Positions 1 through 3,822 of a DNA stretch of 64,000 bases are shown here, in pieces. Numbering within the stretch: position 1 is the first letter of the stretch; each line of letters opens with the position of its first letter. The stretch is taken from NCBI RefSeq assembly GCF_003018255.1, contig NZ_CP027440.1. One strand, given 5' to 3'. The stretch comes from Escherichia coli. GTDB lineage: Bacteria; Pseudomonadota; Gammaproteobacteria; Enterobacterales; Enterobacteriaceae. The position numbers and the translations under genes were made by a program. The notes beneath the pieces are model-generated. The model was not told where the DNA came from. It saw nothing but the letters and a program-made list of their open reading frames with translations, and did not search any database.

Positions 1-1046
1 CCGTTCAGCTTGTCGTTTTCCTGGCTGATGTGCGAAAGCATCTCTTCGGCAATACCATGCGAATACGGCACCGCCACACAGAAGCTGGCCCCGGCAGGCA
101 TACTGTTCCATACCGGCGTAAAATCGAAACTGGCATCTACGCTGGCGGATTCATCATTTAACGCCACAAAGCTATGCCAGCCGTCGTTGCTCATTTCGAA
201 GCGTACGCCAGCAAAAGAAGGCATTAATCGCTGGTAGCCAAACCCCAGCAACCTGGCGCTGACAACAATACGCTGGCGTACTGGCGTTTTTTCAGCAGCA
301 CGCTCTTCCAGGCCAAAGCTGGCTTGCCAGCGTTTTTTACCGCTCAACAAATCACTTGCGATCGCCGTGGCTTCGGTATCCTGCTGGTCATCTTTAAACA
401 GCATATCCGTACTGGAAAACACCAGCATCTTGTCCTGATAAGTCGCGAACATCAGGGCGTTATTGCCGTTATAGCGCAACTGATAAACCGGGATGGTTTC
501 ACTATTTAGCTTAATACTACTGATTTCCGTTTTGCTTAACTGGCTGTCGCTGGTAGCGGCAAACAACAATGGCTCCAACAGTTTGCTTAAACCACTGCGC
601 TGGATCAGCACCATGTAATGTGAAAGATGGCCTTGTTTATCGTGCCATAGCGCCGCCTGCGCGGGCTGATCTAAGAGTGACGAAAAGAGCTTATCTTTCA
701 GCGTGAGATCGTGTTCATAGACAATGCGGCGAATGCTGCCTTCAATGCCCAGACGATCGGCATGATTCTGATAATAGAAAACGAAATCTTCACTCAGAAC
801 ATCGTGGAGAAACGGAATGGTAAGGAGGTCTTTGGGAAGCTGGCTCAGAGAGTCGCTGTCGAGAAAGAGGTCCGGCTCATTGAGATCGATTTGCAGATTG
901 TTGTGCACCACCAGCGGCGACAACGTTTTTTCTGGCCCACTGCCAGCATATTGCAACGCCCAGACGCCAGCGGAAAGCAGTACTATTGCGCCCAAACCTA
1001 CAAGACCATAGAACCGCCAGCCTTTCGCCTTTTTTTCACCACTCAT
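1..1046 (-). CDS. yfaA: DUF2138-family protein YfaA, N-terminal part (gene continues beyond window start)
   Basis: Manual minus-strand translation from the ATG at 1046-1044 stays open to position 1 (MSGEKKAKGWRFYGLVGLGAIVLLSAGVWALQYAGSG...), with a signal/TM-like N-terminus. It is absent from the ORF track only because it has no stop inside the window. Position downstream of gyrA matches my recollection of E. coli synteny. Confidence 0.6.
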   Translation of the reverse strand, partial: MSGEKKAKGWRFYGLVGLGAIVLLSAGVWALQYAGSGPEKTLSPLVVHNNLQIDLNEPDLFLDSDSLSQLPKDLLTIPFLHDVLSEDFVFYYQNHADRLGIEGSIRRIVYEHDLTLKDKLFSSLLDQPAQAALWHDKQGHLSHYMVLIQRSGLSKLLEPLLFAATSDSQLSKTEISSIKLNSETIPVYQLRYNGNNALMFATYQDKMLVFSSTDMLFKDDQQDTEATAIASDLLSGKKRWQASFGLEERAAEKTPVRQRIVVSARLLGFGYQRLMPSFAGVRFEMSNDGWHSFVALNDESASVDASFDFTPVWNSMPAGASFCVAVPYSHGIAEEMLSHISQENDKLN

Positions 1047-1194
1047 TGCCACATTCCTTGTGTAAAGCCAGCCATTTTTTACGAGCACAGCAAAACTTTA
1101 CCGCGCCCTAATACGACAAAAGCCCAGACTTTGCAGCCTGGACTTTTCAATTCAAACAAGGGAGATAGCTCCCTTTTGGCATGAAGAAGTAAAA

Positions 1195-3822
1195 TTATTC
1201 TTCTTCTGGCTCGTCGTCAACGTCCACTTCCGGAGCGATTTCATCGTCCCCTTCCGCGGCACTGCCGTCGATGGTATCCAGATCTTCCTCGTCAACCGGT
1301 TCAGCAACACGTTGCAGACCCACTACGTTTTCATCTTCCGCAGTACGGATGAGGATCACGCCCTGGGTGTTACGGCCCACGATGCTGATTTCCGAAACGC
1401 GAGTACGTACCAGCGTACCGGCATCGGTGATCATCATGATCTGGTCGCAGTCATCTACCTGCACCGCGCCAACCACTAAACCGTTACGTTCGGTAACCTT
1501 GATGGAGATAACCCCTTTCGTCGCACGCGACTTAGTCGGGTATTCCGCCACTGCGGTACGTTTACCATAACCGTTCTGCGTTGCGGTGAGGATTGCGCCA
1601 TCGCCACGAGGCACGATCAGAGAGACGACTTTATCGCCTTCGCCTAAACGAATACCGCGAACACCGGTGGTGTTGCAGCCCATCGCACGGACAGAAGACT
1701 CTTTAAAGCGCACCACTTTACCTTCGGCGGAGAACAGCATTACTTCGTCTTCGCCGCTGGTCAGGTCAACGCCGATCAGCTCATCGCCTTCAACCAGTTT
1801 GATCGCCACTTTACCGGCGGTACGCAGACGGTTGAACTCGGTGAGGACGGTTTTCTTCACAGTACCGTTAGCGGTCGCCATGAAGACTTTCACGCCTTCT
1901 TCAAACTCGGTCACCGGCAGGATCGCAGTGATACGTTCGTCCTGCTCCAGCGGCAGCAGGTTGACGATCGGACGACCACGCGCGCCACGAGTGGCTTCTG
2001 GTAACTGGTAGACCTTCATCGAATAGACGCGGCCACGGCTGGAGAAGCACAGAATATGGTCGTGGGTGTTCGCCACCAGCAGTCGGTCAATAAAGTCTTC
2101 TTCTTTAATACGTGCGGCAGATTTGCCTTTCCCGCCACGACGCTGCGCTTCGTATTCAGAAAGCGGCTGATACTTCACGTAGCCCTGGTGAGAGAGTGTT
2201 ACCACCACATCTTCCTGGGTGATTAGATCTTCCAGGTTGATGTCAGCGCTGTTGGCAGTGATTTCAGTACGACGTTTGTCGCCGAACTGTTCACGAACCA
2301 GCTCCAGCTCTTCGCGGATCACTTCCATCAGACGATCGGCACTGCCAAGAATACGCAGCAGTTCTGCGATCTGATCCAGCAGCTCTTTGTATTCGTCGAG
2401 CAGTTTTTCATGCTCAAGGCCGGTCAGTTTCTGCAAACGCAGATCCAGAATCGCCTGAGCTTGCTGTTCGGTCAGGTAGTACAGACCATCACGCACGCCG
2501 AACTCTGGCTCCAGCCATTCCGGACGCGCAGCATCATCGCCCGCACGTTCGAGCATGGCGGCAACGTTGCCCAGCTGCCACGGATTAGCCACCAGCGCAG
2601 TTTTCGCTTCTGCAGGCGTCGGCGCATGACGGATCAGTTCGATGATCGGGTCGATGTTCGCCAGCGCTACGGCTAATGCTTCAAGGATATGAGCACGATC
2701 GCGAGCTTTACGCAGTTCGAAAATAGTACGACGAGTCACCACTTCGCGGCGGTGACGAACAAACGCCGCGATGATGTCTTTCAGGTTCATGATCTTCGGC
2801 TGACCATGGTGCAATGCCACCATGTTGATACCGAAAGAAACCTGCAACTGGGTCTGGGAGTAGAGGTTGTTGAGCACAACTTCACCGACCGCATCGCGTT
2901 TCACTTCAATCACGATGCGCATACCGTCTTTGTCAGACTCGTCACGCAGCGCGCTGATGCCTTCCACGCGTTTTTCTTTTACCAGTTCCGCAATCTTCTC
3001 GATCAGGCGCGCTTTGTTTACCTGATACGGAATTTCGTGGACGATAATGGTTTCACGTCCGGTTTTGGCGTCAACTTCCACTTCAGCACGGGCGCGGATA
3101 TATACCTTGCCGCGACCGGTACGGTAAGCTTCTTCAATACCGCGACGACCGTTAATGATTGCCGCCGTCGGGAAGTCCGGCCCGGGGATGTGTTCCATCA
3201 GCCCTTCAATGCTGATGTCTTCATCATCGATATACGCCAGACAACCGTTGATGACTTCCGTCAAGTTGTGCGGCGGGATGTTGGTTGCCATACCTACGGC
3301 GATACCGGAAGAACCGTTCACCAGCAGGTTAGGAATTTTGGTTGGCATGACGTCGGGAATTTTTTCCGTGCCGTCATAGTTATCTACGAAATCGACCGTC
3401 TCTTTTTCGAGATCGGCCATCAGTTCATGGGCAATTTTCGCCAGACGGATTTCCGTATAACGCATTGCCGCCGCAGAGTCGCCGTCGATGGAACCGAAGT
3501 TACCCTGACCGTCTACCAGCATGTAACGCAGCGAGAATGGCTGCGCCATACGGACGATCGTGTCATAAACCGCCGAGTCACCATGGGGATGGTATTTACC
3601 GATTACGTCACCAACGACACGGGCAGATTTTTTATAGGCTTTGTTCCAGTCATTGCCTAGTACGTTCATGGCGTAAAGTACGCGACGGTGTACCGGCTTC
3701 AGGCCATCTCGGACATCTGGCAGCGCACGGCCAACAATGACCGACATCGCATAATCCAGATAGGAGCTCTTCAGCTCTTCCTCAATGTTGACCGGTGTAA
3801 TTTCTCTCGCAAGGTCGCTCAT
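1195..3822 (-). CDS. gyrA: DNA gyrase subunit A
   Basis: 875-aa ORF starting [17 protein letters not shown], with the GyrA active-site and QRDR region (..[20 protein letters not shown]..) and the acidic C-terminal tail DEPEEE. Confidence 0.97.

Follow-up and report, generated by a model that had tools for sequence, protein, structure and literature searches.

The left edge of the stretch analysed here, a window of 64,000 nucleotides from Escherichia coli (assembly GCF_003018255.1, contig NZ_CP027440.1), lies inside yfaA, the gene that is the subject of this study. On the minus strand its reading frame opens with an ATG at 1046-1044 and continues without a stop codon up to the left edge, by which it is truncated, leaving 348 complete codons of 562 plus 2 bases within 1-1046. 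The 348-residue fragment matches the Pfam profile DUF2138 (PF09909) with an E value of 7.1e-169 over profile positions 2-342 of 560, far above chance level, and full-length YfaA matches the same profile at 4.7e-286 over 15-559, which places it in the DUF2138/MagB family (COG4685). The full-length protein also scores 901.7 bits against the NCBIfam equivalog PRK11410, for which the cutoff is 529. At the DNA level, many complete E. coli genomes match window 1-1200 with 100% identity, and in them yfaA (562 residues) and the adjoining gyrA are the only features annotated in this segment; an antisense open reading frame at 711-1184 (plus strand) gave no family match and is unannotated in public E. 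coli genomes. The yfaA region was matched in 5398 of 5426 complete genomes of the species, and in 5393 with at least 80% coverage; the fragment was missing from about 30. A preliminary description, made from the sequence alone, had named the gene yfaA and counted 348 visible N-terminal codons; the family match and the identity to annotated yfaA bear out the former, and translation of the minus-strand frame the latter. YfaA is encoded by an ordinary, correctly named and already known core gene of E. coli.

To extend the window beyond its edge, we used strain 104 (locus L001), identical to it over 1-1200, and DETEC-S792 (locus L005), the complete genome that comes closest to the first 20 kb of the window (99.3%). 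Both carry a complete yfaA at the head of an intact operon, the order on the minus strand being gyrA, yfaA (562 residues), yfaT (207 residues), yfaS (alpha-2-macroglobulin family), yfaQ (549 residues), and yfaP (258 residues), with transcription running yfaA-yfaT-yfaS-yfaQ-yfaP. The operon sits between gyrA and atoB, and the ato operon follows in convergent orientation. The preliminary description was thus right that an alpha-2-macroglobulin-like gene and several DUF genes lie nearby, but it had placed yfaA beside their operon, whereas yfaA is in fact its first gene; its opinion that function could not be assessed from the truncated frame did not hold either, as the rest of the gene can be taken from public genomes that are identical or nearly so. 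The stop codon of yfaA and the start codon of yfaT overlap as ATGA, which suggests translational coupling of the two genes. By Pfam, YfaT comprises DUF1175 with a weak NlpC/P60 match, YfaS the MG2, A2M bait-region (A2M_BRD) and A2M domains, YfaQ DUF2300 with a weak SpoIID match, and YfaP DUF2135. Two details of the strain 104 alleles deserve mention. Its yfaA, identical to that of the window over codons 1-348, has Ser at codon 477 (L001 13616-13618), a position occupied by Pro in 92% of the family and in the three other E. coli alleles examined. Its yfaS is annotated in RefSeq from a GTG, giving a product of 1504 residues without a signal peptide, while an in-frame ATG 30 codons upstream (L001 12715-12804, minus strand, overlapping the end of yfaT) would provide a plausible signal peptide and a YfaS of 1534 residues; the annotated start probably lies too far downstream.

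The operon has a studied counterpart in Pseudomonas aeruginosa, magABCDEF (PA4492-PA4487), in which MagD is a type II macroglobulin devoid of the thioester and MagB (PA4491), a protein of 589 residues and 64 kDa, bears the sole predicted transmembrane helix of the operon (residues 26-48) (PMC3735191, PMC5764988). We reached a P. aeruginosa mag locus (L007, assembly GCA_001766125.1) through P0158, a frameshifted DUF2138 fragment. Of ten published PAO1 mag deletion-check primers (PMC5764988), nine have a perfect match in this locus and one differs at a single base; their order and orientation are those expected, and the gene bracketed by the magB primers encodes a DUF2138 protein of 589 residues once the frameshift is bridged, as published for MagB. 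In the isolate concerned, magB (L007 10001-11769) is split into reading frames of 397 and 195 residues by a one-base frameshift near codon 345; either the assembly is in error here or magB is a genuine pseudogene. A scan of genome contigs with the primer F.DmagB gave a sole match, by chance, in an Erythrobacteraceae genome.

In BLASTP comparisons, YfaA is 45% identical to MagB over residues 54-562 (509 residues, E 5e-156), YfaS to MagD, YfaQ to MagE and YfaP to MagF are each 53% identical, YfaP is 40% identical to MagA, and YfaT is 76% identical to MagC, whose structure has been solved (PDB 7BK8). The CxEQ thioester motif is absent from both YfaS and MagD, which marks both as type II macroglobulins; in YfaS this absence is combined with the MG2, A2M_BRD and A2M domains expected of the class. 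By these comparisons, YfaA is the E. coli ortholog of MagB, and the E. coli cluster the five-gene version (magBCDEF) of the Mag system. Both proteins belong to DUF2138, are similar in size (562 vs 589 residues), carry one N-terminal transmembrane helix, and are encoded directly upstream of MagC-like, A2M, MagE-like and MagF-like genes. There are differences, too: in E. coli the operon consists of five genes, without a magA paralog in front, whereas that of P. aeruginosa starts with the YfaP-like magA and is under GacA/RsmA control, and the tail of YfaA is shorter than that of MagB, with its helix at 13-31 instead of 26-48. The YfaT/MagC pair (L001 12738-13361 vs L007 11754-12404) stands apart from the other four, which reach only 45-53% identity, and these NlpC/P60-like proteins appear to be under unusually strong constraint. 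The earlier characterization of this region as the least characterised neighbourhood touching the window does not survive the comparison, as the orthologous magBCDEF genes have been studied since 2013 (PMC3735191, PMC5764988, PMC12663445).

DUF2138 is a family of modest size: at 50% identity it forms 326 clusters among 1.84 billion representatives, and a larger sequence collection yielded 1240 matches. The full order DUF2138, MagC, A2M, DUF2300/SpoIID, YfaP_C was found in E. coli (L001, L005), Salmonella enterica subsp. salamae, Yersinia, P. aeruginosa (L007), the gamma proteobacterium HdN1, and a metagenome contig with a DUF2138 protein that shares only 28% identity with YfaA; the same order holds up to the contig end in a Pseudomonas sp. 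contig (L002) and in a further metagenome contig (L013) with a DUF2138 protein of 26% identity. Since gene order holds across these taxa, DUF2138 is a dedicated component of this operon. In S. enterica subsp. salamae (L003 1-9338) the five-gene operon occupies another chromosomal context, in an island adjoining a phage-type integrase, an autotransporter and a PerC-like gene, and this different setting beside an integrase suggests that it was acquired horizontally as part of the island. The five Yfa proteins gave zero matches to the PADLOC anti-phage defence models.

At the N-terminus of YfaA, a short basic tail, MSGEKKAKGWRF (codons 1-12, window 1011-1046, minus strand), with a net charge of +3 ahead of the hydrophobic segment, is predicted to be cytoplasmic, and is followed by a single predicted transmembrane helix or signal anchor (codons 13-31, window 954-1010, minus strand), on which hydropathy, the AlphaFold2 model and family comparison agree. 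In a Kyte-Doolittle profile with a 19-residue window, the maximum of 1.94 falls at residue 13, and values elsewhere always stay below 1.6. For conservation we relied on an alignment of 66 sequences, the members of which are 24-72% identical to YfaA; 60 of the 66 aligned homologs have the hydrophobic segment, and the median charge before the helix is +3. The positive-inside rule, applied to the basic tail, predicts a cytoplasmic N-terminus and a periplasmic location for residues ~35-562, a domain of about 500 residues. MagD, too, is located in the periplasm, on the same side as this predicted domain.

Within the domain, the most conserved block spans codons 54-140 (window 627-887, minus strand; D59, Y91/Y92, G103, R107, E111, W134, G139), which we infer to be a candidate partner-binding surface. 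Residues Y92, G103, G139, C323, P327, C358, W359 and P368 are invariant in the alignment. As both Cys323 (window 78-80, minus strand) and its partner Cys358, encoded beyond the window, are among them, they probably form a periplasmic disulfide. An AlphaFold2 model built on the same alignment (predicted local distance difference test, pLDDT, 89.2; predicted template modelling score, pTM, 0.84) comprises a helix at 11-34 that a disordered linker (35-58) connects to a body of mixed alpha/beta structure. A PDB sequence search with YfaA returned nothing meaningful, and the best Foldseek match of the model was TP0453 of Treponema pallidum (E 4.6e-4, query-normalised TM-score 0.21), so that the fold has no close counterpart among solved structures. 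TP0453 and the Mog1/PsbP-like envelope domains (LpqN, TiME, DcrB, PknH sensor) share only 8-11% identity with YfaA over no more than 165 of its 562 residues and, unlike YfaA, are not associated with a macroglobulin; we therefore regard this as a resemblance and not as family membership. Comparison of alignment segments with hhalign revealed no internal domain duplication in YfaA, all probabilities being below 2%. Between E. coli alleles, the ratio of nonsynonymous to synonymous substitution rates (dN/dS) of yfaA is 0.08-0.12 at a dS of 0.13-0.16, and such values indicate that the gene is maintained by selection.

What could a protein of this kind do for the macroglobulin encoded next to it? 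In P. aeruginosa, co-immunoprecipitation from the inner membrane recovers MagB together with MagD, MagA and MagF, and MagB is degraded in the absence of MagD (PMC3735191). The soluble domain of MagB associates with MagD in a 1:1 complex, conferring the strongest thermal stabilisation, and is able to join MagA:MagD and MagF:MagD complexes (PMC5764988). Furthermore, loss of magB rendered MagD scarce, moved it to the periplasm and abolished its cleavage from 165 to 100 kDa, and complementation restored all three (PMC5764988). Type I macroglobulins such as E. coli YfhM/ECAM and Salmonella Sa-A2M, encoded beside pbpC, are likewise large, periplasmic, retained at the inner membrane, and regarded as envelope guards (PMC5764988), yet they anchor themselves by their own lipobox and bear the CxEQ thioester, whereas YfaS and MagD possess neither (PMC3735191). 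The latter two depend on a separate anchor protein, and this is the part ascribed to MagB/YfaA.

We propose, and hold to be probable, that window 1-1046 encodes residues 1-348 of a MagB ortholog that anchors YfaS to the inner membrane within a periplasmic guard complex. YfaA would be a bitopic inner-membrane protein with a basic cytoplasmic tail, a helix at 13-31, and a ~500-residue periplasmic domain which, by analogy with MagB, would bind the type II macroglobulin YfaS in a 1:1 ratio. Such binding would tether YfaS to the inner membrane, stabilise it, and permit its processing to a shorter form. Together with YfaT (MagC, an NlpC/P60-like peptidoglycan binder), YfaQ (MagE, SpoIID-like) and YfaP (MagF), the two proteins may constitute a guard complex whose P. 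aeruginosa counterpart protects against peptidoglycan-targeting type VI secretion system (T6SS) effectors, as the mag operon does against VgrG3 and Tae1 (PMC12663445). This analysis establishes the identity and orthology of the gene, the predicted topology of its product, the strict synteny of the operon and the action of purifying selection; the binding, anchoring and protective role in E. coli would follow from the work in P. aeruginosa. Consistent with a MagB-like role of YfaA, E. coli cells deleted for yfaQ are wider, and their phenotypic profiles correlate with those of mepS, mepK, nlpI and related mutants (PMC12282094).

The correspondence YfaA=MagB, YfaT=MagC, YfaS=MagD, YfaQ=MagE, YfaP=MagF lets results from P. 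aeruginosa carry over to E. coli, and it connects the wider cells reported for the yfaQ deletion with a macroglobulin complex, a connection absent from the yfaQ paper (PMC12282094). The gene yfaA itself is known and the role of its family partly characterised. Its wider relevance is modest; understanding of type II bacterial macroglobulin complexes is still partial.

Several points weigh against this proposal. The last 214 codons of yfaA in the window strain and the rest of the operon lie outside the window, and their intactness is read from the nearest genomes. An equivalent of magA is missing from the E. coli operon, and the literature found contains no experiment on YfaA itself. Upstream, the spacer between gyrA and yfaA (1047-1194, minus strand) folds into three consecutive hairpins (-55.8 kcal/mol, z-score -4.5), the first being the gyrA terminator and two being terminator-like. 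A terminator scan and RNA folding place an intrinsic terminator-like hairpin after the gyrA stop codon at 1158-1175, and folding of 1040-1200 (z-score -4.5) a second strong hairpin, bordered by a run of A and a run of U, at 1118-1147, both on the minus strand. A search for a sigma-70 promoter for yfaA found no consensus match and, given this together with the two terminator-like hairpins between gyrA and yfaA, expression of yfaA may be low or conditional. In line with low expression, a YfaQ-msfGFP fusion was undetectable (PMC12282094). The yfa locus is also dispensable: transposon insertion in yfaA costs nothing in lysogeny broth (PMC7751189), and E. coli OP50 naturally lacks the segment from micF to yfaA; one paper even termed the K-12 cluster a pseudogene (PMC7092960 for both). 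Likewise, in E. coli KFu022 (L010 5179-6114) a natural deletion joins the middle of atoE to yfaA codon ~24, and the whole yfa operon is gone. In K-12, presumably, yfaS is disrupted.

Some of these same facts could be taken to mean that the cluster survives in E. coli only as a remnant in decay, with yfaA no longer functional, as the designation of the cluster as a pseudogene in K-12-derived strains (PMC7092960), its dispensability (PMC7751189), the natural deletions, and its low or undetected expression (PMC12282094) would suggest. We consider this extremely improbable, as yfaA is retained at no less than 80% coverage in 5393 of 5426 complete genomes, shows a dN/dS of 0.08-0.12, and stands with all five genes intact in the closest genomes. 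YfaA/MagB could instead be no passive anchor but itself the processing enzyme, or an essential cofactor, that cleaves the macroglobulin, from 165 to 100 kDa in the case of MagD. The 100 kDa form of MagD is indeed lost in the magB deletion and regained on complementation (PMC5764988), and the polar residues D59, E111, D167, S211 and S459 are highly conserved, with H112 at 82%. However, no histidine or lysine is invariant among the 66 sequences, and hence no catalytic triad or dyad is recognisable in YfaA; family and fold searches gave no protease match, MagB and full-length MagD were purified together in a stable 1:1 complex, and even excess tobacco etch virus (TEV) protease cut MagD only in part when MagB was present (PMC5764988). 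Lacking an invariant catalytic set and a protease fold, a protease identity for MagB/YfaA was rejected, and we judge the broader proposal of a processing enzyme or cofactor to be very unlikely.

The periplasmic domain might alternatively serve as a module that senses a ligand, be it a lipid or a fragment of the envelope or of peptidoglycan, and gates activation of the complex on envelope damage, anchoring then being secondary; this we regard as unlikely. A related and bolder idea keeps the tether but adds to it, with YfaA/MagB acting as a sensor of damage or ligand that allows the thioester-less macroglobulin to be cleaved and activated upon attack on the cell wall, for example by T6SS peptidoglycan hydrolases. 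The basis offered for it is the ~500-residue periplasmic domain with no close solved fold and with an invariant cysteine pair, and we deem it rather unlikely, though if true, the Yfa/Mag complex would be a regulated periplasmic immune device. Anchoring of YfaS by YfaA, as in the MagB-MagD pair, remains our preferred reading.

With regard to translation of yfaA, a Shine-Dalgarno sequence, AAGGAA, was read 7 nucleotides upstream of the ATG (1054-1059, minus strand). The gyrA-yfaA spacer, searched for RNA elements, matched no Rfam family at E values up to 1. The ribosome-binding region of yfaA (window 1050-1062, minus strand) reads ACAAGGAAUGU, which we take to be similar to the CsrA/RsmA binding consensus ACARGGAUGU. 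Given that the P. aeruginosa mag leader is a direct target of RsmA (PMC3735191), CsrA control of yfaA in E. coli is a lead. The neighbouring gyrA is complete in the window (1195-3822, minus strand; 875 residues), and its quinolone-resistance positions Ser83 and Asp87 are wild type. Finally, despite the 100% identity of 1-1200 to many genomes, the best match to the first 20 kb of the window among the 5426 complete E. coli genomes was 99.3% identical, and the window strain is in this part either unsampled or mosaic.
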